From assembly GCA_964649705.1 (NCBI GenBank), contig CAZYRM010000015.1:1119-65118 (forward strand): a stretch of DNA of 64,000 nt, in the 5' to 3' direction. Positions 381 to 51,157 of the stretch are shown piece by piece (positions within the stretch are counted from its first letter, which is position 1; each line of letters starts with the position of its first letter). The notes beneath the pieces are model-generated. The model did no database searches. It worked only from the letters and a program-made list of their open reading frames with translations, and was not told where the DNA came from. The stretch is from an uncultured Planctomycetia bacterium. GTDB taxonomy: Bacteria; Planctomycetota; MHYJ01; WSZJ01; CAZYRM01. The translations under genes were made by a program, and so were the position numbers.

Positions 381-1527
381 TCGCGGTCCCTCCCGACAAG
401 GGCCCGCCGCGAGGCAGGCGGATCACGAAGCGGGCCCCGCCCCCCGGGGGGCTCTGGGCCTCGATCGCGCCGCCGTGGGCGCGGGCGACGTTCCAGCAGA
501 TCGCCAGCCCGAGCCCGGTCCCCGAGGGCTTCGTGCTGAAGAGCGGGTCGAACACCCGCTGCAGGTTCTCCTTCGGGATCCCCGGGCCGGAGTCCTCGAC
601 CTCGAGGACGACGTCCCCCTTCTCCTCCCGGAACCAAAAGCGGATCGTCCCCCTTCCGTCCATCGCCTCGACGGCGTTCTGCACCAGGTTCGCGACGACG
701 CGGCCGAGCTCCGCCTCGTCGGCGCGGAGGCGGACCGTCGCGGACGGCGTCTCCACGGTCGCCTTCACCTCCGCGGGGAGGGACATCCGCCCCAGGCTCT
801 CGGAGACGAGATGGGCCAGGTCGACGTAGCGGACCTCGAGGGGGCGGCTCCGGACGTAGTCGAGCAGGCTCGCGATGACCCGCTGGGCCTGATCGACGTT
901 CCGACGGATCGTCTCCAGGTGCCTCGATGCGTCCTCGTGCCCCGTCACGGCGGGGATCTGCCTGAGGAGGTACACGGAGGTGCCGATGGCCCCGAGGGGG
1001 CTCTTCAGGTCGTGGTTGACGCTCGCGGCGAGCTGGCCGATGGTCGCGAGTCGCTCCATGCGGCGGATCTGCTCCTCCTGGGCCTCCTCATAGGAGCCCA
1101 CGAGGATCCCCAGCTCCAGGTCGAGCGCCTTCTGGACCGCCATCCTCAGGTCGATCGGCCCGCTCGCGACGGCCGTGGCGAGCTGCCTCCGGATGACGTC
1201 CATCGCGGCGATCACGAAGCTGGGCGCCAGGCCGATCCGGACGTGCATCCGGCCGATGCGCTTCCTCAGCGCCAGGTGGGCCTCGCCGAAGTCCGCCGAG
1301 AAGACCTCCTCGAGCCAGCGCGCGAGCGTCTGCTTGAGGCGGATCACCTGGGCCTCGTCGGCGATCAAGGACCGGAGCGGCGGGGAGGCGAGGATCCGCG
1401 CGTAGAAGTCGTCGACGACCGCGGGGAAGTGAGGGCGGACCGAGGCGGCGTGCCCGCGGAGGAGACGGAGGTCCTCGTCGGTGAACCCGACGTATCGCTT
1501 CATCTCCTCGAACCGGGACAAATCCAT
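373..1527 (-). CDS. Globin-coupled (protoglobin-domain) sensor histidine kinase
   Basis: MDLSRFEEMKRYVGFTDED...VVDDFYARIL...IGRMHVRIGL is a protoglobin pattern. H-box SVNHDLKSPL, N-box NLVQNA, DSGPGI and GTGLGL follow. Start moved from 1683 to ATG 1527. Confidence 0.88.
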   Translation of the reverse strand: MDLSRFEEMKRYVGFTDEDLRLLRGHAASVRPHFPAVVDDFYARILASPPLRSLIADEAQVIRLKQTLARWLEEVFSADFGEAHLALRKRIGRMHVRIGLAPSFVIAAMDVIRRQLATAVASGPIDLRMAVQKALDLELGILVGSYEEAQEEQIRRMERLATIGQLAASVNHDLKSPLGAIGTSVYLLRQIPAVTGHEDASRHLETIRRNVDQAQRVIASLLDYVRSRPLEVRYVDLAHLVSESLGRMSLPAEVKATVETPSATVRLRADEAELGRVVANLVQNAVEAMDGRGTIRFWFREEKGDVVLEVEDSGPGIPKENLQRVFDPLFSTKPSGTGLGLAICWNVARAHGGAIEAQSPPGGGARFVIRLPRGGPLSGGTANV

Positions 1528-1593
1528 GTTGAAACCCTGCGGCCGTTTGCGGCATGATACGCCGCTTTCTTCGCGAGTCAATCCTGCCCCGCC

Positions 1594-3075
1594 ATGACCC
1601 CCATGTGCGCCTCGATCCTCGTTGTCGAAGACCACGCTGACTACCAGCGCAACCTCCGTGAGATCCTCCAGTCGGAGGGGCACACGGTCCGCACGGCGTC
1701 GACCGTCCGCCAGGCGGAGCGCGAGTTCCGCGAGCAGCCGAGCGAGATGCTCCTCCTCGACCTGCGCCTCCCCGACGGCAACGGGCTCGACCTTCTCGAT
1801 CGGGTGCGGAGCGAACGGCCGGACCTTCCCGCCATCGTCCTGACGGGAAACGCGGACCTGGAGAGCGCCCTCAGGGCCATCCGCGCGGGGGCGCAGGCCT
1901 ACCTGCGCAAGGACGCCCCCGTCGAGGAGATCCTCGCCACGGTCGCGAACGTCGCGCGGACGAGCGAGCTGGAGCGGGAGAGGCGAGCGCTCACGGAGGC
2001 CCTCCGCGACTCCCAGGAGCAGCTCTCGCGGGTCCTCGAGTGCGCGCCCGACGCCATCCTCTCGATGGACCTCGAGGAGCGCCTGACGTTCGTCAACCGG
2101 GACGTCTCAGGGATCCCGCGCGAGCGGTTCATGCAGGAGGGGATGCCGCTCCTCGACTCGCTCCGGGCCGAGGGGAGCCGCGAGCGATGGCACCGCGCGG
2201 TGGACGAGGTCCGCAAGACGCTCCAGGGCGTCCCGAACGTCCAGATGGTCCACGTGAACCGCCGCACGATGAGGCGCTACGAGTACGTTGCGAATTTCGC
2301 GCCGATCCTCGACGCGCAGGGGCGCGTGTCGGGGGTCATGTGGATCCTCAGGGACGTCACGACGCAGCGCGAGCTGGAGCGGAAGCTCGACGACGCGGAG
2401 CGGCTCGTCGAGGAGAGGCGCCGCCTCGCGGCGATCGGCGAGGTGGTCAGCGGCGTCGCCCACGAGATCCAGAACCCGATCCAGAACGTCGTGATGGGGA
2501 TCGACCTCGTCCGCGCGAAGCTCGGCACGGAGAGCCCGGTGGAGCGCTACCTCGCGCAGATCGAGCGGGCGAGCGAGAGCGTGCGCCTCCTGGTGCGGGA
2601 CCTGCTCGACTACTCCCGCTCGAACCGGATGGACCTCGAGCACGTCGACCTGCGCACGATCGTCCAGGGGGCCATCGACGAGACCCGCGGCAAGGCGGAG
2701 CAGGCGGGCGTCTCGATCGCCTGGAATCCCGCGGGTCCCGCGCCGGCGATGATCGACCCCCCGCGGATGAGGCAGGTGCTCCTCAATCTCCTCATGAACG
2801 CGATCGAGGCGCTGCCGCGCGGCGGACGGGTCGAGCCGCGCGTGGCGGCCCTGCCTGACGGCGGAGCGGAGATCGCGGTGTGTGACGACGGCCCGGGGAT
2901 GCCCGCGGACGTCCTCGAGAAGGCCTTCCTCCCGTTCTTCACGACGAAGGCGAGGGGGACGGGCCTGGGACTCTCCATCGTGCACAAGATCGTGCAGGCG
3001 CACCACGGACGCGTGACGCTCACGTCGGAGCCCGGCAAGGGGACGCGGATCGCGATCACGCTCCCGCCGCCGTAG
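1594..3075 (+). CDS. Hybrid receiver-PAS-histidine kinase
   Basis: N-terminal ILVVEDH...LLDLRLPDG receiver; PAS (APDAILSMD...WILRDVT); VAHEIQNP, NLLMNA, DDGPGM, GTGLGL. Confidence 0.92.
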   Translation: MTPMCASILVVEDHADYQRNLREILQSEGHTVRTASTVRQAEREFREQPSEMLLLDLRLPDGNGLDLLDRVRSERPDLPAIVLTGNADLESALRAIRAGAQAYLRKDAPVEEILATVANVARTSELERERRALTEALRDSQEQLSRVLECAPDAILSMDLEERLTFVNRDVSGIPRERFMQEGMPLLDSLRAEGSRERWHRAVDEVRKTLQGVPNVQMVHVNRRTMRRYEYVANFAPILDAQGRVSGVMWILRDVTTQRELERKLDDAERLVEERRRLAAIGEVVSGVAHEIQNPIQNVVMGIDLVRAKLGTESPVERYLAQIERASESVRLLVRDLLDYSRSNRMDLEHVDLRTIVQGAIDETRGKAEQAGVSIAWNPAGPAPAMIDPPRMRQVLLNLLMNAIEALPRGGRVEPRVAALPDGGAEIAVCDDGPGMPADVLEKAFLPFFTTKARGTGLGLSIVHKIVQAHHGRVTLTSEPGKGTRIAITLPPP

Positions 3076-3106
3076 GGGCGGGCGGCACCGGGGCGCACGC
3101 GAAGTG

Positions 3107-3901
3107 CTACTTCGACCGCGAGCGCGTCAGGGCCTTCGCCCAGGCGGCGTCCTCGGGTGAGAGGGGAGGGACGGGCGGCTTGCTGTAGTCGAGCATCGCC
3201 CAGTAGACCCCGGACCTGTAGACGTTCTCCATGAGAGACTGCAAGTCCACGGCCAGATCGGGGTCCCCCTTCAGCAGGGGAACGGGGAAGCGCGGCAGGC
3301 GATCCCGGAGCTTGAGCGGATAGACGTCTGCGCGCGATCGCCGGCCGGCGCGGTGGATGGCCACCAGGTAGTCGTACGGGCGGTGGGGGCGAAGCGCCCT
3401 GGGCGGCACGGCCACGGTGTGCTCCCCGCCGCGAAGGAGGTCGATCTCGATCAGATGGACGTCCGAGGACAGCACCTCGCGCTGCCTCTGGACGTACTTC
3501 TCGTAGCCGTCCGATCCTGGTGACTCGTTCGTCGGGGAGAGGACCTCGATCACGGTCACCAACCGTCCCAGGGCGCCGCCGAGCCGGATCTCGACGTTCG
3601 CCTGTTCCAGCTCCAGTGGGAGCGCTTCCAGGCTCACCGCCGGGTCGATCGTCGCTCCGCCAGCCCTCTTCATCGGCCTTCGCGATTCACGATACACGAT
3701 GACGTCCGGCCCGATAGGTCTGTTCTCGGCGGCCTCGACGACAACTCGAAAGCTGTGCGTTGCCACGTAACGCGGCGCCGTTCTTGCCGAGATGTTCCAT
3801 GCGAGCAGGCTGATGAGGCCGTGATGCGCGCTCGGCCAGAAGACAGGATCCTCGAGCCAGGGGTCCATACCTGGAAACAGGTACCGCCTCTTTCTCGCCA
3901 T
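3107..3901 (-). CDS. DUF4058 family protein (PD-(D/E)xK/Uma2-like)
   Basis: FPGMDPWLE, IEVLSPTNE and HLIEIDLLRGG are typical of this family. Confidence 0.85.
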   Translation of the reverse strand: MARKRRYLFPGMDPWLEDPVFWPSAHHGLISLLAWNISARTAPRYVATHSFRVVVEAAENRPIGPDVIVYRESRRPMKRAGGATIDPAVSLEALPLELEQANVEIRLGGALGRLVTVIEVLSPTNESPGSDGYEKYVQRQREVLSSDVHLIEIDLLRGGEHTVAVPPRALRPHRPYDYLVAIHRAGRRSRADVYPLKLRDRLPRFPVPLLKGDPDLAVDLQSLMENVYRSGVYWAMLDYSKPPVPPLSPEDAAWAKALTRSRSK

Positions 3902-5028: not shown

Positions 5029-5149
5029 CCCGCGGATCCTGGTCGAAGCGCCGCCGAATCGACGACCGCATGAAGAATCCCGCCCGACACGGGCGGGGAG
5101 CCCAATTCCCTCTCTCCGGGCTCGTCCATGCGCGAGGGGGCGCGCTCTA

Positions 5150-5514: not shown

Positions 5515-5616
5515 GGAAATCTCCTTTCGGATGACCGCGGCCGTCTCTCCAACAGCGCCTCGACCGGAATCCGAGGGTCCATTGATATGACAGCAGTTCG
5601 GGGCGGGTCCATGCGC

Positions 5617-5704
5617 GTTCCCCTTCCCCTTCCCGTTCCCCTTCCCTTTCCCAGCGCGTGAGAAGCGCTGGGAAGGGGAACGGGAAAGGGAACGGGAAGG
5701 GGAG
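5617..5704. repeat. Palindrome of tandem TTCCCN / NGGGAA hexamers
   Basis: Six TTCCCN units + GCGC, a short loop, then GCGC + six complementary units. Confidence 0.9.
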
Positions 5705-7060: not shown

Positions 7061-7192
7061 CCCATATCAAATATCTCATATCAGATATCTCATATCACAT
7101 ATGGCCCGGAGCCGTGCTGTTGGAGAGCCCAATGGCTCCGGTATCGGGTCATATGTGATATGAGATATCTGATATGAGATATTTGATATGGG
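7061..7192. repeat. Perfect 43-bp-arm palindrome built of ATATCNN heptamers
   Basis: 7061-7103 is the exact reverse complement of 7150-7192; inner hairpin CCGGAGCC/GGCTCCGG. Confidence 0.97.
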
Positions 7193-21230: not shown

Positions 21231-21366
21231 AACAATTCTCAATTCTCAATGAGCAATTCTCAACGAAGGCTCAGGTTCGAAAGGCCCAAGGCCCCGAACT
21301 CCGACACTTGAGACATTCGAATTTGAGCCTTCGTTGAAAATTGCTCATTGAGAATTGAGAATTGTT
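21231..21366. repeat. 43-bp-arm palindrome built of CAATNNN heptamers
   Basis: 21231-21273 pairs with 21324-21366 at 42/43 positions. Confidence 0.96.
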
Positions 21367-26239: not shown

Positions 26240-26370
26240 GGAGATCCCAGATCCCAAATCCAAAATCCCAACGAAATCCTACATCCCAGATCCCAAACTG
26301 GGTTCCATCGTGGTTGGGATCTGGGATGTGGGATTTCGTTGGGATTTTGGATTTGGGATCTGGGATCTCC
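26240..26370. repeat. 57-bp-arm palindrome built of A(G/A)ATCCC heptamers
   Basis: 26240-26296 pairs with 26314-26370 with one T.G pair; 17-nt loop. Confidence 0.96.
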
Positions 26371-39047: not shown

Positions 39048-39150
39048 GGCCGAGCCCCGACAGGCCGAGCCCCGAAGGGGCGCCCCAAGTCAGCCAGGGG
39101 CGGAGCCCCTGGAACCACGTCAGGAGACGGAATGGAGCCCTGAAGGGGCG
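39048..39150. repeat. REP-like cluster of GC-rich hairpins
   Basis: GAGCCC(C/T)GAAGGGGCG at 39067 and 39135 flank the hairpin CCAGGGGC-GGA-GCCCCTGG at 39094-39112. Confidence 0.75.
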
Positions 39151-42865: not shown

Positions 42866-45800
42866 ATGGCCGACGACCTCCACGCCCAACCCCCTCCCGG
42901 CGAGCAAGCTCAGCCCACCGAGAAACTCGCAGGAGACCTACTCGGATCAGACCAGGCCGGCGCCGCCCCCTGCGTGCCTGTTCCCCTACCTCCGACAGGC
43001 TCACCGCATCCCGACGCGCCGACGATCCCGTTGAAGGGGGACGAGTGGGCTTGGCCGAACGTTCCGAAGCAGCTCGGTCCGTACGCGCTCGTCGATGAGC
43101 TGGGTCAGGGCGGAATGGGGATCGTCTTCCGAGCCCGTCACGTGAAGCTCGGCAACGACTGCGCAGTGAAGATCCTGATCGCTGGTGAACATGCCTCTCC
43201 AGAGGCGATCGCCCGGTTTCAGCGCGAGGCCGCGGCAGTCGCGAAGATGGGGAAGCACCCAAACATCGTCACGGTGCACGACCTGGGCCAGGAGGGGTCG
43301 CTCTCGTACTACGCGATGGAGCTGGTCCAGGGGGTCTCGCTGCGGAGGAAGGTCCGCGAGGAGTCGTACAAGCCGAAAGAGGCCGCGACGCTCGTCGAGA
43401 AGGTCGCGAGGGCGCTCGACTTCGCGCACAAGCACGGCGTGATCCATCGCGACATGAAGCCGGACAATGTCGTCGTGAGGGCGGACGGCGAGCCGCAGGT
43501 CATGGACTTCGGCCTCGCGAGAGACCTAAGCTCCGATGCCCAGCTCAGCGCCGCAGGGCAGGTCATGGGGACGCCCGCGTACATGGCTCCCGAGCAGGCG
43601 CGGGGCGAGGCGTTGAAGACCGATGCTCGAACGGACGTGTACGCCCTGGGGGCGATCCTCTACGAGCTGCTGACGGGGATTCCTCCTCACGGCGGGCAGG
43701 ATCTTGGCGCAATCTTCTCGAAGATCCTCCGTGGCGACATCGTCCCGCCGCGCAAGCTGCGCCCCGAGGTGCCGCGCGATGTCGAGACGGTCTGCCTCAA
43801 GTGCATGGAACTCTCGCCCGCGAGGCGCTACCAGACCGCGGAGGCGCTCGCGGACGACCTCGCGCGGTTTGTTCGCGGCGAGCCGGTGCTCGCTCGCCCC
43901 GTAGGTCGCATCTCGCGGTTCGTGCGCCGTGTGCGAAGGCATCCGCTGGTGTCGGGCCTGGTCGCGGGGATCCTCGTGCTCGCCCTCTACGCCGGCTGGC
44001 GCACCCTCGCGCCCGCACGCATCTCGCTCAAGACGAATCCGGCGGGGGCGACCGTCGAAGCGGTTGGAGCGACGCTCTGGAAGGGCGAGTGGGTCTGGCC
44101 TGCTCGCCCCTTCAAGCTGCGGGTGAGTGCCCCCGGGCATGTGCAAAGGGACGTACCCGTCTCGGTCGCGCCGGGGCAGACCACGCGGATCGCCATCATC
44201 TCGCTCGACGTCGAACCGGGCAAACTCAAACTCACCGGGTTTCCGCAGGGGGTCCGTGTGCGGATCGTCGATGTGGCAACGGGAACGGAGATGGCGGTCG
44301 TATCCCCTCCCTCGGAGAGCGTGCTTGCACCGGGTCAGTACGAGCTTGTCGGCAGCTTTCCGGGGTGCTTCCCCCGGGAGCAGCGAATCAGGATTGCGCC
44401 CGGAGAGACGAAACGTGCAAACGTGTCTGTCGAGCACCAGCTCATGTGGAAGTGCAGACCAAGCAAGGAGTGGACCACGGTACCCTTCGCGGTCGCGGAC
44501 TTGAACGCGGACGGTGTGCTCGATTGCGTCGCGGGTTCCCTCGACCACTACGTCCATGCATTGTCGGGCAAGGACGGTTCCACGCTTTGGATGGTCGACC
44601 CGGCGGACGTGACTCCCCAGCGATCGACGCCAAGCACCCCCGAGGATGTGGGCCTCGCCGGTGTGGTGATGGCATGGTCTGGCAGCGCGGTCTTCCCCTC
44701 CACGTCGATGGCGGACCTGGATCTGGACGGGGTGTTAGACTGCGTGGTCGGATTCGACAATGGCGTTTGCGCCCTCTCGGGCAGGGGCGGAGTCTTTTGG
44801 CATTACCCAACCGCCGGGGCCGTGACCTGTTCGCCCGCCCTCGTGGATCTGAATGGCGACGAGACTCCCGATGCGGTTGCAGGATCGATGGACGGAACCC
44901 TCCATGCCCTTTCGGGCAAAGACGGCACAGTCCTCTGGGAGAGGAGGGAGATCGGGACGATGACTTCCTCACCCGCGGTAGATGACCTGGACGGAGATGG
45001 GGTGGCGGATTGCGTCGTCGGCTCGCACAAGGGAGATGTGTACGCTTTCTCCGGTAGGGACGGCTCGCCCCTCTGGCGATCCGAGACTGGGGCCAATGCA
45101 TGGACCTCACGTTCCTTGGCCGATCTGAATGGAGACGGAGTACCCGACTGCGTCGTGGTCTCAGAAGACCGCAAGGTCCGCGCGCTTTCGGGCAAGGACG
45201 GCCGCGCCCTCTGGGCATACGAGGCGCAGAGGGAGTTCACCTCCGCTGCGACTCTGGGCGACATCTCTGTCGATGGCGTCCCCGACTGCGTCGTCGCCTC
45301 CCTCGATGGCTGGGTACATGCGCTATCTGGAGTGAACGGCTCGCCCCTGTGGAGATTCAAGAACAATTTGCTCCTTGGATCGTACGCAACCATGGTCGAC
45401 GTGAATGCCGACGGCGTGCCGGACTGCGTGCTCGGCTGCGGACGCAGCCTCTACGCGCTCTCTGGAAGGGACGGCTCGATCGTGTGGCAGTACGACACGC
45501 CCCAGACCGTCTATGCTCCTGTGCTCGCGGACCTTCGCGGCGATGGTGTCCTCTCGGTCGTCGTTGGCTCGGATGACAAGAACGTCTATGCACTCTCGGC
45601 GATGGACGATTTCACCCTCTGGAGCTTCCAAACGGGGTCCTGTAGTCTCTCCCCTCCCATCCCCACCGACCTGAATGGCGACTCGGTGCCGGACTCGGTT
45701 GTCGCATCCAGAGAACATGCGGTCTATGCCCTATCGGGGCAGGACGGCGCGATTCTCTGGACGTTCGAGGTTTCCGGCCGGGCCGAGGTCTCCCGTCAAC

Positions 45801-47926
45801 TCGCGGATCTAAACGCGGATGGTGTCCCCGATTGCTGCGCAGCCGGCGATGACGGCAGGGTATCCGCTCTTTCAGGAAGGAACGGGGAAGTGCTCTGGAC
45901 CTACGTGGGGGAGGGCGACGTCCATTCCTCCCCGGCCCTGGCCGATCTGGACGGAGACGGAACTGCCGAGTGCGTCGTTGCCACCCAGAACGGGAACGTC
46001 TATGCGGTTGCGGGACGAACGCCCTCCTGCCTCTGGACGGCCTCAGTGCACAGCCCGCCGAGTACGGCTCTAGAGTTCGCGGATGTGGACAAGGATGGCC
46101 GGCTGGACTGCATCCTGGGTTCCGAAGACGGATGCGTGACGGCACTCTCGGGCAAGGACGGACGACAAGTGTGGAAGTCCTCCAACTTGCGGGACGAATT
46201 CGACCACCCTCACGTCCCCGATTGGCTCTCCGTCGCGGACCTCAATGGAGATGGCCAGCTCGACGCCGTAGTACAAGAAAACGTGGGCTTCGTTTGCGTA
46301 CTCTCAGGCCAGGACGGCTCGGTCGTCTTTTCCCGGTTCGAAACTGGCACTGGCGGCGGCGCACCGATCCTGCTCGACCTGGATGGAGACGGCGTGGTCG
46401 ACACCATCGGTGGGCACCTCGATGCGGAGATAACGCCTTGGGTGATTGCCAGGTCGGGAGCATCTGGTCAAGTGCTCTGGGCCTGTCCAACCGACGAGAC
46501 CGTGGTCTGCGGGGCGGCCTTGAAGGACCGGAATGGCGACGGGGTCCCGGACTGCGCCTTCGGAGCCTCGGATGGGAGTGTCGTCATCCTGTCGGGCAAG
46601 GACGGATCGCTGCTCTTTGGGACCAAGAGGAACGGAGAGAATCCGTTTTCCATTTCGCCTTGCGACCTGGACCGTGACGGCATCCAAGAGATGATCGTCA
46701 CGTGGGGAGACCGCATCGAGGCGATTCGGGGCAGACCCTCGCGGTCTCTCACAACAACGCGTGAACTCCGCGTGACGGATGCCGTCACCACCTTCGGCGA
46801 GCGCCGGGTGCACGGCAACTGGGTCTCGTTGGCCGACGAGGCGAGTCAGTGCCTGACGCGCAGCCGAGACCGCTGGGTGAAGTCGACCTGCTGGTTGAAT
46901 CTGGGGCTTGCGCGGTTGCACTTGGGCGATCCTGAGGGCGCGCGAGGCGCGCTTGCCGAGGCGAGGGCGCTCGGACTGCGATCTCCTGAGGGCGCCGTCT
47001 TCGAATGGGTCGCATCATGGAGGTGGTCGGGTTGCCCCTCCAGCATCCACGAGGATACAGCTCGGGCACTCAGTGAGGCACTTGCATTTGAGCCGCACCA
47101 GGTCTTTGACGGGTTTTGCGAGGTGAGAGACCTCCTCACGGGCCAGTGCATCGCCGACCTCGGCCCGATGTCGGATTTCACTTCGGAGCACGGTGACGCC
47201 TACATCGCGGCAAACATGCTCTTCGCGGTGTTCGCCTCCAGGCAGGACATTCCCAGGGACTGGGCCAAGCAGCTCCCGGCGGACCGAATGCCCCTGGTGG
47301 AGGAGGCCGTCTTGGAGAAGGTGCGCACGGGCGCCCACGGCGTTGCTCGCTGGCACGGGTATCTCGCGCTGCTCGCGGGGCTTCAGGGCGACATGGGTCG
47401 GTTCTGGCTCGCCTTCGAGAACTACCTCCACATGCCATTTTGCGGTCGGTCGCTGGACGGGCTGATCGAGAAAGTCGCCAGACAGTACGGTGCGGGGCAG
47501 GAGGAGGGCCGCACGCTGGCCCCCCAGTGGATGCAGGATTGGTTTAAGGGTAACGACGCTTTCCTACGTGCGGACTATGCTGCCGCACGAGAGCTGTTCG
47601 AGCAGGCCCTTGCCGCCGCACCGAATGACGCGAGATCGATGACCCAGGTTTCTGCGACGGCGTTGCAGACATGCCACTACACCCTTGCGGTGATCTACTC
47701 TCTCGCAAGCGTGGGCAAGGACGCGCCCTCGGTGGAGGCTCATCCCATCGACGCGGGCCAGGCTGCTCGGCTTCGGGACCAGGCGTTCCAGCACCTTGAG
47801 GCGGCGTTGGCGCTCGAAGGCCAAGGAGAGTACTCCCTCGGCCATGCGATTCCCACGAATGACAACTTGGCCCCCCTCCACGATGATCTGCGTTGGAAGG
47901 AGCTTCTCGGCCGCTTGGGCAAGTAG
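42866..47926 (+). CDS. Membrane Ser/Thr protein kinase with PEGA-like, FG-GAP/PQQ-like propeller and helical C-terminal domains
   Basis: LGQGGMGIV, AVKIL, HRDMKPDN, DFGLA, GTPAYMAPEQ; TM; 16 repeats of D(L/V)(N/D)xDGxxD. Confidence 0.93.
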   Translation: MADDLHAQPPPGEQAQPTEKLAGDLLGSDQAGAAPCVPVPLPPTGSPHPDAPTIPLKGDEWAWPNVPKQLGPYALVDELGQGGMGIVFRARHVKLGNDCAVKILIAGEHASPEAIARFQREAAAVAKMGKHPNIVTVHDLGQEGSLSYYAMELVQGVSLRRKVREESYKPKEAATLVEKVARALDFAHKHGVIHRDMKPDNVVVRADGEPQVMDFGLARDLSSDAQLSAAGQVMGTPAYMAPEQARGEALKTDARTDVYALGAILYELLTGIPPHGGQDLGAIFSKILRGDIVPPRKLRPEVPRDVETVCLKCMELSPARRYQTAEALADDLARFVRGEPVLARPVGRISRFVRRVRRHPLVSGLVAGILVLALYAGWRTLAPARISLKTNPAGATVEAVGATLWKGEWVWPARPFKLRVSAPGHVQRDVPVSVAPGQTTRIAIISLDVEPGKLKLTGFPQGVRVRIVDVATGTEMAVVSPPSESVLAPGQYELVGSFPGCFPREQRIRIAPGETKRANVSVEHQLMWKCRPSKEWTTVPFAVADLNADGVLDCVAGSLDHYVHALSGKDGSTLWMVDPADVTPQRSTPSTPEDVGLAGVVMAWSGSAVFPSTSMADLDLDGVLDCVVGFDNGVCALSGRGGVFWHYPTAGAVTCSPALVDLNGDETPDAVAGSMDGTLHALSGKDGTVLWERREIGTMTSSPAVDDLDGDGVADCVVGSHKGDVYAFSGRDGSPLWRSETGANAWTSRSLADLNGDGVPDCVVVSEDRKVRALSGKDGRALWAYEAQREFTSAATLGDISVDGVPDCVVASLDGWVHALSGVNGSPLWRFKNNLLLGSYATMVDVNADGVPDCVLGCGRSLYALSGRDGSIVWQYDTPQTVYAPVLADLRGDGVLSVVVGSDDKNVYALSAMDDFTLWSFQTGSCSLSPPIPTDLNGDSVPDSVVASREHAVYALSGQDGAILWTFEVSGRAEVSRQLADLNADGVPDCCAAGDDGRVSALSGRNGEVLWTYVGEGDVHSSPALADLDGDGTAECVVATQNGNVYAVAGRTPSCLWTASVHSPPSTALEFADVDKDGRLDCILGSEDGCVTALSGKDGRQVWKSSNLRDEFDHPHVPDWLSVADLNGDGQLDAVVQENVGFVCVLSGQDGSVVFSRFETGTGGGAPILLDLDGDGVVDTIGGHLDAEITPWVIARSGASGQVLWACPTDETVVCGAALKDRNGDGVPDCAFGASDGSVVILSGKDGSLLFGTKRNGENPFSISPCDLDRDGIQEMIVTWGDRIEAIRGRPSRSLTTTRELRVTDAVTTFGERRVHGNWVSLADEASQCLTRSRDRWVKSTCWLNLGLARLHLGDPEGARGALAEARALGLRSPEGAVFEWVASWRWSGCPSSIHEDTARALSEALAFEPHQVFDGFCEVRDLLTGQCIADLGPMSDFTSEHGDAYIAANMLFAVFASRQDIPRDWAKQLPADRMPLVEEAVLEKVRTGAHGVARWHGYLALLAGLQGDMGRFWLAFENYLHMPFCGRSLDGLIEKVARQYGAGQEEGRTLAPQWMQDWFKGNDAFLRADYAAARELFEQALAAAPNDARSMTQVSATALQTCHYTLAVIYSLASVGKDAPSVEAHPIDAGQAARLRDQAFQHLEAALALEGQGEYSLGHAIPTNDNLAPLHDDLRWKELLGRLGK

Positions 47927-47972
47927 ACGGATTCGGTCGATTCAGGGCCACGGGAGGTCGATCCCGTGGGAA

Positions 47973-48203
47973 TCGAGCTCGCTCGAGGACTGAGAGAGCC
48001 TACTCGAGGGTCAATCGAGCTCGATTGCAGACCCTTTGAGGGCGATCGAGGGCCGATCGAGCCTGCTCGCATGCGATTCGGGCTCGATCGGTGCCCGATC
48101 GAGCTCGATCGCCCATTGAGCGAGCCTGTTCGCGGACCCATCGAGCTTGATTGCGGGCCGAGCGAGCCTGCGATCGACGCCATCGAGCACGAATCTGCCC
48201 CCC
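47973..48203 (+). repeat. Degenerate 21-nt tandem array (11 units)
   Basis: TCGAGC-like heads every 21 nt from 47973 to 48183. Confidence 0.85.
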
Positions 48204-48460
48204 CGCCGTCCAACGCCTGAACGGCCCGTCCAACCGTTGGACCGGTCACGAGCGCGCTTGTGACGGCGAGAGACACCCCGCAACCCGCCATCCGCAACGC
48301 GCGGCGACACTTGCGGACAATCCTGAGCGCGACCGTCGGTCTGGCATCGCAGGTGCATCTCACATTCCCGTCCGCGGTCGCGCGCGCGCCGCGGACGCGG
48401 GATGGCGACGCACTGTGCCGAGCCGCCCGAGGAAGCGACGCGCGAGAAAGGAAGGGAGCC

Positions 48461-48847
48461 ATGGCGAAATCGCAGATTCCGTCGAAGCCCGAGCTGCTCG
48501 TGGCGATGGTGACGCGGATGATCGAGGGCGATGAGATGCACAAGTCGGAGAACCCGTTGCCCGCGAAGGTCCGAAAGGCGATCGAGGACGCGCTGGCGAC
48601 CCTCGATCCCGTCTACCGCCGCCTCCTGCAGTCCAAGGTCGACTACCTCGAGCTGCGTCAACAGTTCGTGGAAGCTCGGAAGGCGACGCTCAAGGTCGTC
48701 CGGTCGGCTCGCGACGCGGTGTACGGGCTGTACTCCCGCGCTGACAAGACCATCGGCGACTACGGGCTCGTCAACCCGAAGATCGGTCGGCGGTCCAGGA
48801 AGGAAGAGAAGCACGATGGATCGAAGCCCGCTTCCAACGCGGCGTAG
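48461..48847 (+). CDS. Hypothetical helical protein (128 aa)
   Basis: AAGGGAG RBS; amphipathic helices; basic tail; terminator-like hairpin follows. Confidence 0.8.
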   Translation: MAKSQIPSKPELLVAMVTRMIEGDEMHKSENPLPAKVRKAIEDALATLDPVYRRLLQSKVDYLELRQQFVEARKATLKVVRSARDAVYGLYSRADKTIGDYGLVNPKIGRRSRKEEKHDGSKPASNAA

Positions 48848-48856
48848 TCCAACGGG

Positions 48857-48890
48857 GGAGGAGGTCGGTTGCCCGGCCTCCTCCTCTTCA
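48857..48890 (+). terminator. Putative intrinsic terminator
   Basis: GGAGGAGGTCGG-TTGC-CCGGCCTCCTCC followed by a pyrimidine run. Confidence 0.55.
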
Positions 48891-49129
48891 TTCCGAACGT
48901 CCACGCCCTCTCGCGCGGCTTGAGGCGCTGCCGCGTCACCTGTTTCCAGAAGGTGCTCGAAAACCCAGCAGTCGAATCCGCGACTGCTGGAAAAACCAGC
49001 ACTTTCCCCTCGGGCGGATTCTGGACGATCAGCACGAAACCTCTTCAGTCCCTGTACGTTGCGGGAATTCAGCGCCCCTGGCACGGCCCGTGCCTTTCTC
49101 CTGTGGCCTCCATGCAGGAGAAGACGGAC

Positions 49130-51157
49130 ATGAGCACACCGCGAACGAACGGCCGACGATCGACTCGACAGCCCGACCGCCCCCGCGCGAAGACCCCGCA
49201 CGCCGCGCGAATCTACTCGCGCCGCCCTCGCCGCCGGCGCGAATCGGCCCTCTCCATCTACCTCCCCATCGGTGTGGTCCTCTCATGTCTCATCTTCGGG
49301 CTCGTCGCATGGGTCCGCCACGAGACCCCGCCCGCTGTGCGACCGGAGACCGCGAGCGCTCCGACGGTCGACGCCCCGGCGCCGACCGAACGACCCGGGC
49401 ACGTGACCCGCGCTCCGATCGCCCCTGACGGCTCCCTCGACAGGGACTCCGGCGCCGCGCCGCCCGTGGCGCCCCCCCGCATCGCGGTCGAACCGAAGCC
49501 GTCTCCGACGGAGGTCCCCCTGACCGCCCAGCCCGCACCCGATCCGCCCGCCGCCGCGCGCGAACCCGTCCGCCTGCCGGCCGAGATCGACGCCCTGCTC
49601 GCCCGCGCCGAGGAAGCGGCCAGGCGCCGCCGCTACCGCGCCGCGTCCGAGGAAGCGAGGCGAATCCTCGACAGGATTCCCGCGGACCACCCGTCGCGCC
49701 CGGTCGTCGAGCCGCGCGCCAATGACCTGATCGACCTCGCGAGACTCTTCGCCGACTTCCTGGCCGCCAGTTCCGGGTTGTCCGATCGAAGCTGGCCGAT
49801 CTCCACGGACCTCACCGGGACGATCGAGGGGGCCACGGAGGAGCGCCTCTCCGTGAAGGTGGGCGCCGCCCGCTCCGGCGTCGCGTGGGCCGACGTCCCC
49901 GCGGAGCGGATGCTCGACCTCTTCCGCCGCGCCGGTGCCCGGGACGCGTACGCCCTCGCGGTCTTCTGCTTCGACAACGGCCTCCAGGTGGAGGGGAGCC
50001 GTGAGCTTAACCGCCTCATCGAGCGAGCGCCGGAGCAGGCGCCCCGCGCGTACGGCCTCGTAGGGCGCGTGCGCGGAGTGGCCGTCTCGACCGACGGGTT
50101 CCTGTTCCACGAGGGCCGGTGGCTCACTCGGGCCGAGCGAGACCTCGCTGTCCTCGAGACGAAGATCCAGACGCTCGCCGATCGCATCCGGAAGGGATCG
50201 GACGACGAGACCGCCTCCGCGGTCGAGGAATTCGAAGAGCTGCTCTCGCGGCTGGAGCCGCGCCCCGGCTTCGCGCAGGAGGCGAGGGCGCTCCGCGCGT
50301 CGTCGCTCGAGGCGCGCCGCGATGCGCTGGTGGAGCGGCTGCAGGGTCTCCCCGCGATGGCGGCAATCGAGCGCATGAAGTCCCTCAAGGGCGAGCTGAA
50401 CGCCGCGCGCGCCGAGGCGATGCGCGTGATCTTCGACAATGGAGTCTACCCGGACGAGGACCACGGCCGCCGAGGTCAGCCTGCCGTCGACAAGCGGGTC
50501 CGCCTGGTCCGCGAGTTGTGGGAGAAGCCCGCGGTGACCCTGCCGGGCTCGCCCAGACCGTGCCTGGAGGGCCTCGAGGCCCTCCTCGCGCTGGAGGGGC
50601 TGCTGGGGCAGCACGGGGGATTGGGACGGCGGGACGGGGAGTGGCGGCGGCTCCTTTCGATGCTCGAACGTCCGGTCAGCGTGCGCACCGTGTCCCTCGA
50701 CGACCGGGAGCAGGAGGTCATCGACCACAACCTAAGGGTTGCGGAGTACAACGCGGGACTGAACACGGACATGGCGCCCGAGGAGGTGCGGGTTGTCGAG
50801 CTGGTGAACGGGTACCGCGAGATGCTGGGTCTGAAGATCCTCGAGTTCGACGGCGCGCTCGCCGCGGCGGCGCGTGCGCACTCGGAGGACATGGAGGCGC
50901 GCGGCTTCTTCGCCCACGTCAACCCGGACGGGAAGAGCCCGTCCGATCGCTGCTTGGGGAGCGGGTACCCGAGCAGGATGGTGGGCGAGAACATCGCCAT
51001 GGGCATGTATACGGCCGAGGAGGCCCACGACGCCTGGTACCGGAGCTCGGGTCACCACCGGAACATGCTCGACGCGGGGTACACGCAGATGGGCTGCGGA
51101 CGATCCGGAGCGTACTGGACGGAGAACTTCGGCGCCGCCCCGGCGGAGGCGAAGTAG
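49130..51157 (+). CDS. Membrane-anchored protein with a C-terminal CAP (SCP) domain
   Basis: AGGAG RBS; TM; Pro-rich linker; LVNGYR...AARAHSEDM...FFAH...GENIA...W.RSSGHHRNML. Confidence 0.85.
   Translation: MSTPRTNGRRSTRQPDRPRAKTPHAARIYSRRPRRRRESALSIYLPIGVVLSCLIFGLVAWVRHETPPAVRPETASAPTVDAPAPTERPGHVTRAPIAPDGSLDRDSGAAPPVAPPRIAVEPKPSPTEVPLTAQPAPDPPAAAREPVRLPAEIDALLARAEEAARRRRYRAASEEARRILDRIPADHPSRPVVEPRANDLIDLARLFADFLAASSGLSDRSWPISTDLTGTIEGATEERLSVKVGAARSGVAWADVPAERMLDLFRRAGARDAYALAVFCFDNGLQVEGSRELNRLIERAPEQAPRAYGLVGRVRGVAVSTDGFLFHEGRWLTRAERDLAVLETKIQTLADRIRKGSDDETASAVEEFEELLSRLEPRPGFAQEARALRASSLEARRDALVERLQGLPAMAAIERMKSLKGELNAARAEAMRVIFDNGVYPDEDHGRRGQPAVDKRVRLVRELWEKPAVTLPGSPRPCLEGLEALLALEGLLGQHGGLGRRDGEWRRLLSMLERPVSVRTVSLDDREQEVIDHNLRVAEYNAGLNTDMAPEEVRVVELVNGYREMLGLKILEFDGALAAAARAHSEDMEARGFFAHVNPDGKSPSDRCLGSGYPSRMVGENIAMGMYTAEEAHDAWYRSSGHHRNMLDAGYTQMGCGRSGAYWTENFGAAPAEAK

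Follow-up and report, generated by a model that had tools for sequence, protein, structure and literature searches.

In a 64,000-nucleotide stretch from an uncultured Planctomycetia bacterium (contig CAZYRM010000015.1, positions 1,119 to 65,118; henceforth the window), an array of 11 degenerate, dyad-symmetric 21-bp units (47970-48203, no strand assigned) lies upstream of a gene encoding an orphan protein of 128 residues (48461-48847, + strand). We propose, and give the proposal about an even chance, that the array is the non-coding distal part of a long sigma-54 control region driving this gene, in which it serves as a helically phased spacer or scaffold. The computed evidence that carries the proposal is the periodicity of the array, the lack of coding constraint on it, a promoter motif, the positions of dyads relative to this motif, a quantised spacing between distal and proximal dyads and, in relatives, an adjacent gene for a bacterial enhancer-binding protein (bEBP). 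Judged from its sequence, the dyad-symmetric layout in steps of two helical turns would be much more in keeping with a phased DNA element than with coding DNA.

The units of the array start at 47973 + 21n, in agreement with a preliminary description of this DNA that had been made from the letters of the window, and have the consensus CgATCGAGCtcGaTCGcGgnC. Periodicity was measured as base-match autocorrelation with z scores against shuffles, and strong period-21 regions were located with a sliding scan. Over 47966-48203, the autocorrelation reaches 0.61 at lag 42 (z 11.7), compared with 0.53 at lag 21 (z 10.3) and 0.57 at lag 63. From these values we describe the array as having a period of 21 with an alternating super-unit of 42 nt. 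Indeed, ATCGAGCTCGAT, a perfect 12-bp palindrome, or a near copy of it recurs every 42 nt. The array is the sole strong period-21 region of the 64-kb window (z 7.9 in the sliding scan). Because its units are degenerate, Tandem Repeats Finder reported fragments only (48119-48170, period 21 x 2.5). The consensus unit contains two TCG triplets 10 nt apart, the second at the offset of 10 given in the preliminary description. Strong dyad centres are tenfold more frequent in the array than in shuffles (5 versus 0.5), one pair lies 10.5 bp apart, and spacings of 10.5 and 21 bp between dyad centres are over-represented; each unit is therefore roughly palindromic.

Two other properties that had been ascribed to the array did not hold. 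The autocorrelation at lags 7 and 14 is at background (0.22 and 0.20), and we therefore reject the idea that each unit is composed of three heptamers. A link to the heptamer palindromes of the same window is likewise rejected, since these are long hairpins of another kind. They comprise four long inverted repeats (5616-5703, 7063-7190, 21233-21364 and 26244-26368) whose arms consist of tandem units of 6-7 nt, such as eight copies of ATCCCAA opposite eight of TGGGATC, with a loop of roughly 16 nt between them; the unit differs in each of the four, and neither its sequence nor its period is related to the 21-nt array. The array is not CRISPR-like either, as its units are contiguous and lack spacers.

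To place the array in a wider context, we compared 12 distinct GC-rich loci (the window, L001, L003/4, L006, L009, L012, L016, L017, L018, L019, L020 and L022), in which the identity of the small protein to that of the window ranges from 98% down to about 25%. The window, from an uncultured organism, and its relatives were obtained from groundwater metagenomes. In each of the 12 loci the top upstream autocorrelation falls at lag 21 or a multiple of it (42 or 63), with z scores of 5.4-14.1 at lag 21 and of up to 16 at lag 42; L012 and L022 are at the weak end (z 5.4). In each locus that was scanned, no region scores higher at period 21 than the upstream intergenic one. The arrays span 230-650 bp, or 10-30 units, and the sequence of the unit is lineage-specific, being CGGGTGATCCGCGGAGTTCTC in L018, TCCGAGTCGCGCCGGCCCCGA in L020 and GCCGATGTCAYRYGACWTCGG in L004. 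The preliminary description had paired the array with the small gene and suggested looking for adjacent period-21 arrays at the homologs of that gene: both travel together in all 12 loci, down to protein identities of 25-30%.

The array had also been read as an 84-residue open reading frame (ORF; 47966-48220, + strand) that might encode a hypervariable repeat peptide. The frame exists: it begins with a GTG codon 7 nt downstream of GGGAGG, and is open in both the window and L001; one gene call also covers the array of L003/L004, and by eye P-x-x-x-D-x-G recurs in the translations of the window and of that call. No coding signature accompanies it. Using the NG86 method on the window and L001, we obtained a dN of 0.179 and a dS of 0.197 in the ORF frame (dN/dS 0.91), and values of dN/dS between 0.6 and 1.2 across all six frames. 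For comparison, the N-terminal part of the upstream kinase gene gave about 0.1 (dN 0.035, dS 0.367) and the small gene about 0.3 (dN 0.014, dS 0.043). The 41 substitutions in the array distribute over the three ORF codon positions as 12/17/12, without the third-position bias of a gene, and alter 33 codons, 27 of them non-synonymously. Nor does the G+C content show a codon-position bias; at third positions it is 0.67, against 0.78 and 0.88 in two real genes. In L001 the ORF stop codon TGA is replaced by TGG and followed by a 1-nt indel; in the L009 array, none of the six frames is free of stops; and among the remote relatives, where no frame or strand is consistently open, gene callers either made no call over the arrays or placed calls on opposite strands. 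We judged the ORF not to be a gene and rejected the hypervariable peptide, there being no coding constraint in any frame. The spectrum of substitutions is ordinary and not adenine-specific, and thus gives no sign of mutagenesis of the diversity-generating retroelement type.

The palindromic units could in principle fold as RNA. Two compensatory pairs were found by RNAalifold on two sequences, together with changes that break hairpins, and a search of Rfam over 47000-49500 returned no meaningful match; the evidence for RNA structure in the array is negligible. On all these grounds we regard it as highly improbable that the array encodes either a heptad-repeat peptide or a structured RNA. A decayed repeat of the upstream kinase, which the preliminary description had named as an explanation that would undo its own, was rejected as well: the ORF peptide shows no similarity to the kinase (BLASTP E 0.64), and the arrays of other loci follow bEBP genes. 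The C-terminus of the L001 kinase differs from that of the window kinase, yet the array is shared.

The array and the small gene are separated by a putative promoter, which the preliminary description does not mention. TGGCAYN6YGCW has a single match in the 128 kb made up by both strands of the 64-kb window: a sigma-54-type sequence, TGGCAT-CGCAG-GTGCA (TGGCATCGCAGGTGCA), at 48342-48357 on the + strand. Its GG and GC keep the canonical -24/-12 spacing (TGGCAC-N5-TTGC), and 119 nt separate the motif from the ATG. The same motif with identical spacing is present 102-120 nt before the ATG in 12 out of 12 GC-rich loci. In the window, the array is located 140-370 bp upstream of it, and in-phase dyads of 19-21 bp occupy the interval between the two.

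The window has two such dyads at 48205-48245 (no strand assigned): GTCCA-N5-TGAAC, whose centre is 127 bp upstream of the -24 box, and GTCCA-N5-TGGAC, whose centre is at 107 bp. They continue the 21-bp register of the array and are nearly unchanged in L001, which has a perfect 10/10 dyad at this place, and GTCCA-N5-TGGAC/TGAAC recurs in L006 and L012 at 127 and 96-97 bp, in an island conserved between both loci. These dyads are probably the binding sites of an activator of the bEBP class. A third dyad, GTCACGAGCGCGCTTGTGAC (GTCAC...GTGAC; 48245-48264, no strand assigned), is centred 87.5 bp upstream of the -24 box, has 9/10 complementary positions and is identical in L001. With centres at 127, 107 and 87.5 bp, the three dyads fall within the interval of roughly 80-150 bp upstream in which the inverted repeats of a sigma-54 enhancer would be expected. 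Farther away, at the upstream edge of the conserved cassette, stands a perfect inverted repeat, CCACGGGA-GGTCGA-TCCCGTGG (47948-47969, no strand assigned; arms 8/8 complementary), which is identical in L001, where the homology begins at the position equivalent to 47929. Its centre is 383.5 bp upstream of the -24 box, and the distal dyads of the relatives (see below) are found at 380-423 bp. This repeat could be the distal dyad of the window or a terminator-like hairpin of the kinase gene.

Inspection of the loci revealed a bEBP gene upstream of the array in 9 of the 12, and in eight of them (L006, L009, L012, L016, L018, L019, L020 and L022) this gene is directly upstream on the same strand. 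Short bEBPs of 322-348 residues, consisting of an AAA+ domain and a C-terminal Fis-type helix-turn-helix (HTH) in the architecture of PspF, are encoded in L009, L016, L018, L019, L020 and L022, while L006 and L012 encode a version containing a GAF domain. In L017, a gene for a short-type bEBP is separated from the array by two inserted genes (1127-3285), one encoding a Schlafen/AlbA_2-HATPase protein and the other a ParA-like protein (CbiA/AAA_31); defence-type neighbours are also present at several other loci (SNF2 helicase, HsdR, AAA_21/DUF4276 and AIPR). Leaving out the L017 protein, whose gene is at the edge of the locus, all eight translated bEBPs end in a Fis-type HTH and five have an exact GAFTGA motif.

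Each locus possesses its own strong dyad of 15-21 bp, and the position of this dyad is fixed with respect to the promoter. Measured upstream from the -24 box, the dyad centres lie at 96-98 and 127-129 bp in L006, L009, L012 and L018, at 96 and 128 bp in L020 (read by hand), and at 96, 107 and 118 bp in L016. A distal copy of the dyad occurs farther upstream, and its distance, counted in the upstream direction from the dyad at 127-129 bp, is close to a multiple of 21 bp in each case: 253 bp in L012 and, again read by hand, in L020 (12.05 x 21 for both), 274 bp in L006 (13.05 x 21), 294 bp in L018 (14.00 x 21), 295 bp in L009 (14.05 x 21) and either 273 or 295 bp in L016 (13.00 or 14.05 x 21). 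For the distances of all six loci to come this close, to within 1 bp, to multiples of 21 by chance has a probability on the order of 1e-4 to 1e-5. L018 also has the cleanest array of the family (3323-3740), about 18 units of CGGGTGATCCGCGGAGTTCTC, of which the first five are reversed in orientation; the flip occurs at the distal dyad (3449-3467).

The pair L006 and L012, whose bEBPs are 78% identical, illustrates which parts of the region are retained. Conservation between the two is limited to the dyads, the promoter and a block close to it, and the sequence of the array has turned over. The distance from the stop codon of the bEBP gene to the promoter is 704 bp in L006 versus 683 bp in L012, a difference of exactly 21 bp. 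The residues of the bEBP recognition helix agree in these two loci, which share a dyad, and differ between loci with different dyads, a pattern suggestive of co-variation between recognition helix and dyad sequence.

From these sequence features we infer a promoter that depends on sigma-54, a protein that binds the array and a looping of the intervening DNA. Dimers of the bEBP would occupy the strong dyads of 19-21 bp that lie between about 90 and 130 bp upstream of the -24 box and, in most relatives, the distal third copy as well; the bEBP acting on the window promoter would be encoded outside the 64 kb. The 21-bp lattice would hold the upstream sites on one face of the helix and would set the distance between distal and proximal sites in whole steps of two turns. 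Three dimers could then close a loop, or a wrap, of roughly 250-300 bp and form the active hexamer that contacts the polymerase. The array itself could be read by the bEBP, by the small protein, by a protein recognising GATC, or by nothing at all.

Several observations weigh against a spacer or scaffold for bEBP sites. A tblastn search of the 64 kb of the window found no bEBP gene, and the bEBP gene of L001 is 6 kb away, on the opposite strand, and encodes a different HTH. The inverted repeat at 47948-47969 differs from the proximal dyads of the window, and its spacing of 256.5 bp does not divide cleanly into 21-bp units. In L006, L009, L016 and L018 the arrays reach upstream of the distal dyad, which a pure loop spacer need not do. 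Neither are the GC-rich arrays consistent outliers in intrinsic static curvature, as estimated with an approximate wedge model, which singles out only L016 and L013, the latter an AT-rich relative, and which we take as a weak negative. In the two AT-rich relatives, L013 and L014, the array sits about 600 nt downstream of the small gene, and no sigma-54 motif was seen by eye upstream of that gene. Finally, a cross-matrix of array units against the local dyads lacks diagonal enrichment. We have thus rejected the notion that the units are weak copies of the half-site of the local dyad, and a simple model of weak bEBP sites is unsupported.

The AT-rich relatives show features of their own. Their array is a 21-nt periodic series of A/T tracts with cores of the ATTTTCTAAAAA type (L013 5150-5440, L014 3242-3633). 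In L013, which has a GC content of 40%, as do such AT-rich relatives, it is preceded by a perfect GC-rich repeat of 31 nt x3.3 (5040-5141). Identity between L013 and L014 is 100% in the 1026 nt that precede the array and only 88.7% within it, and the two are unrelated beyond. Tandem runs of heptamers are also present there.

One sequence, GATC, is common to the arrays. It is enriched 1.7-7.4-fold in them, mildly so in L004 and L018, and the distances between GATC sites peak at 0 mod 21 (162 pairs, versus about 22 for each other class); in the window and L001, spacings of 10-11 occur as well. GATC-centred cores every 21 bp may provide weak contacts on one face of the DNA for a protein polymerising along the array. 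A further-reaching reading would make the lattice an enhancer class that has not been described, in which a filament or wrap, formed by the AAA+ activator or by the small coiled-coil protein as its partner, would grow on the lattice from high-affinity anchor dyads, in the manner of DnaA at oriC, and would thereby determine the output of the sigma-54 promoter; activator and small protein would form a new feedback pair of the PspF/PspA kind. We hold this reading to be possible but doubtful, and the same applies to its component that the GATC-centred contact points on one face evolve by concerted evolution.

The GATC sites could alternatively be the element itself, namely a phased cluster subject to Dam-type methylation and bound by a SeqA-like protein, or a methylation-sensitive switch, that would tie the promoter to replication or to an epigenetic state. 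SeqA binds hemimethylated GATC pairs on one helical face, which provides a precedent for pairs on the same face, and GATC is the only feature common to arrays whose units are otherwise unrelated, with an enrichment of up to 7-fold and a spacing of 0 mod 21. However, GATC is over-represented threefold throughout these genomes, the arrays of L004 and L018 are only mildly enriched, and no gene for a methyltransferase or a SeqA-like protein was noticed in the loci, though no systematic search was made. We consider a methylation-dependent cluster decidedly improbable.

The small gene downstream of the promoter is a genuine gene, as the preliminary description had held in calling it well formed, helical and basic at its end. 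The family is conserved, with a dN/dS of about 0.3 against L001, and the AlphaFold model is all-helical with a pLDDT of 85. It comprises a helix at residues 10-26, a long helix of 56 residues (35-90), a short helix at 96-101 and a disordered basic tail. No sequence match was found in Pfam or NCBIfam (both at E <= 0.1-1), PHROG, PADLOC or the PDB, and Foldseek on the AlphaFold model found no PDB relative by fold. The model is a plain helical hairpin, in which neither a ribbon-helix-helix (RHH) nor an HTH, nor any other recognisable DNA-binding fold, is apparent. An exhaustive profile search yielded 14 representatives of the family, and word-indexed searches about 30 relatives of 119-129 residues, all of them metagenomic and mostly from groundwater; scans of species-representative genomes uncovered no family member, and a scan of metagenomes no new loci. 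The most conserved part of the protein is RDAVY-LY-DK-I-DYGL-TP.

We weighed the possibility, given first in the preliminary description, that the array is the operator lattice of the 128-residue protein. In this view the coiled-coil protein with its basic tail would polymerise along the lattice on one face of the DNA and either feed back on its own promoter or sequester the activator there. In its favour, the array stays with the small gene where a bEBP gene is not adjacent (the window, L001 and L004) or is separated from it (L017), and the AT-rich L013 and L014 have a 21-nt array near the gene and no bEBP. Moreover, short bEBPs that lack a sensor domain are classically kept in check by a partner encoded in the operon that they activate, as PspA controls PspF and HrpV controls HrpS. 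By contrast, the modelled protein offers no apparent DNA-binding fold or family match, its conserved RDAVY-LY-DK-I-DYGL-TP is common to lineages with completely different array units, and the proteins P0001 and P0003 are 71% identical while their arrays share little past CCGAT and GA. An operator lattice for the small protein thus appears rather unlikely to us.

The cassette of L001/L002 (L001 9468-10446) aligns to 47929-48906 of the window, the small proteins being 98% identical. Homology is limited to array, leader, gene and terminator. Downstream of the cassette, the window encodes a CAP-domain protein and L001 a DNA_alkylation protein; the upstream kinases share only the N-terminal kinase domain (90% identity) and differ in their C-termini. 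Since the homology is confined to the cassette and the flanks differ, the cassette behaves as an independent recombination unit. Within it, the window and L001 differ by 17% in the array (41 substitutions, no indel), 4.7% in the leader (48204-48460) and 2.1% in the gene. The array has thus diverged faster than the synonymous sites of the small gene (0.19 versus a dS of 0.043) and slower than those of the kinase gene (0.37). Two further haplotypes recovered from public reads show the same, with 14% divergence in the array versus 1-4% in the gene. As the preliminary description had inferred from one sequence, length is strictly kept while sequence drifts: the array has a constant length among the four haplotypes, with no net indel and 14-17% substitutions.

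The substitutions are not spread evenly over the unit. Core columns have 0.13 substitutions per site versus 0.21 elsewhere (correlation coefficient r between -0.40 and -0.53; p between 0.04 and 0.008 by permutation), and the match of the units to the consensus is the same 71% in both lineages, the window and L001. Concerted evolution could produce such a pattern, as could stabilising selection on a periodic core or the two acting together. The low divergence of leader and gene could also be explained by a recombination tract over these two parts alone. The dS against L001 is 0.043 in the small gene (48461-48847) and 0.367 in the kinase gene 5 kb upstream (43013-43967), a contrast that suggests either a recent exchange of leader and gene or strong constraint at the nucleotide level.

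Such data also bear on the null hypothesis, that the array has no function and is a minisatellite kept periodic by conversion between units and slippage and tolerated because the intergenic region is long, its length steps of 21 bp being a mutational by-product. The arrays diverge 4-10x faster than the adjacent gene (0.19 versus the dS of 0.043 in the window; 11% versus 0% in L013/L014), the array is not conserved between L006 and L012 although the dyads are, and the periodicity of L012 and L022 is weak (z 5.4). Nevertheless, every one of the roughly 10 lineages has an array of equal period, even where protein identity is as low as 25%, and, as judged from the 64-kb window and the fetched loci, has it at this locus only. 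Furthermore, the four haplotypes show no variation in copy number, the phasing of GATC is common to unrelated unit sequences, and both lineages keep the 71% match to consensus with the core columns protected. We therefore consider a functionless minisatellite unlikely and continue to prefer a phased spacer or scaffold within the sigma-54 control region.

The leader and the 3' end of the cassette contain further conserved elements. Between the dyads and the promoter lies a block, ACTTGCGGACAATCC (48309-48323, + strand), whose columns are invariant in the alignment of the window, L001 and L004, and ACTTGCGACGA(A/T)TC is kept at the equivalent place in L006 and L012; it is possibly the site of an architectural protein. 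Just 3' of the predicted start site, the 5' untranslated region would form a stem-loop, CGTCCGCGG...CCGCGGACG (48369-48397, + strand), that is identical in L001 and L004; in remote relatives a CGTGCG...CGCACG stem replaces CGTCCGCGG/CCGCGGACG at the equivalent position. The position of this stem-loop is kept in L006, L009, L012 and L016-L019, and the sequences of its stem vary by lineage. The putative ribosome-binding block, GCGCGAGAAAGGAAGGGAG (48440-48458, + strand), is an extended one that L001 and L003/L004 retain; it includes GCGCGAGAAAGGAGG before the ATG, which most loci of the family keep. The positional conservation of the stem-loop together with the conserved GCGCGAGAAAGGAGG suggests that expression may also be controlled post-transcriptionally. 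The gene has its own terminator, as had been noted before: a hairpin read from the sequence, GGGAGGAGGTCGG-TTGC-CCGGCCTCCTCC, followed by a T-rich tail (48856-48887, + strand). It is kept in L001, and the copies in L003/L004 carry paired, compensatory changes (CGG/CCG to CTG/CAG).

Two observations outside the cassette complete the description. The Acido-Lenti-1 RNA motif (RF01687) was found above the gathering threshold in the window (39068-39112, - strand), in L006 (7238-7292) and in L009 (11343-11390), a hint that these three come from a common phylum. A tandem repeat of 27 nt x2.5 (49514-49579) is located in the proline-rich N-terminal part of the CAP-domain gene of the window and looks like an ordinary coding repeat.

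Promoters of the sigma-54 class are the bacterial model of enhancer-dependent transcription, and the enhancers described for them compactly pack two to five sites into about 150 bp. If our reading is correct, the module would be a natural system for relating DNA phase and looping geometry to the assembly of an AAA+ hexamer, and it would show how a cis-element keeps its geometry during turnover of its sequence. It would also place an orphan family of small helical proteins from groundwater bacteria in a regulatory context, that of a predicted sigma-54 promoter usually accompanied by an adjacent sensor-less activator. Were the array functionless, it would still be a clean case in which a minisatellite, confined to one locus through deep divergence, undergoes concerted evolution. 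Our search of the literature on sigma-54 promoters brought up neither an enhancer set among 10-30 phased units nor a third site at quantised distances.

The region resembles the known sigma-54 enhancers (NtrC at glnAp2, NorR at norV and PspF at pspA) in its -24/-12 promoter motif and in having dyads about 100-150 bp upstream, with a spacing in whole helical turns (30-31 bp here and about 32 bp at glnAp2). It differs in that 230-650 bp of 10-30 phased units surround the sites, that a third site lies 12-14 units away and, for the window, that the activator gene is not adjacent. NorR has three essential sites at norV, and the three dyads found here match the three dimers of a hexamer (PMC2831303). 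As with PspF, most relatives have a sensor-less AAA+/HTH activator beside its target. The likeness to the PspF-PspA circuit is limited to the architecture of the activator: the target is not PspA/IM30, as it has no match in Pfam or NCBIfam and PspA is not among its fold matches.

Outside sigma-54 systems, the closest in spacing are the ARG boxes of ArgR/AhrC, imperfect palindromes of about 18 bp with centres 21 bp apart, to which a ring-shaped hexamer binds on one face of the DNA. ARG boxes are paired, well conserved in sequence and located at sigma-70 promoters; the arrays described here share the 21-bp spacing of palindromes, but consist of 11-30 lineage-specific units at a sigma-54-type promoter. 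The plasmid centromeres sopC, with 43-bp repeats that each contain an inverted repeat, and parC, with 11-bp iterons, provide another parallel, in that tandem units, about 42-43 bp long and palindromic, stand beside a small gene; the super-unit of the window measures 42 bp and its palindrome 12 bp. Here, in contrast, the context is chromosomal and a sigma-54-type promoter intervenes between array and gene. We rejected a partition cassette, since the cassette has no neighbouring gene for a nucleoside triphosphatase in 11 of the 12, the window included (a ParA-like gene being present in L017 only), and neither an RHH nor an HTH was recognised in the small protein. Lastly, phased low-affinity DnaA sites between high-affinity boxes guide oligomerisation of an AAA+ protein at oriC. 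The arrays may be likened to this arrangement in that putative anchors flank phased units, with oppositely oriented arrays around the distal dyad in L018. The two differ in that the present context is transcription and the array units are unlike the anchor dyads.

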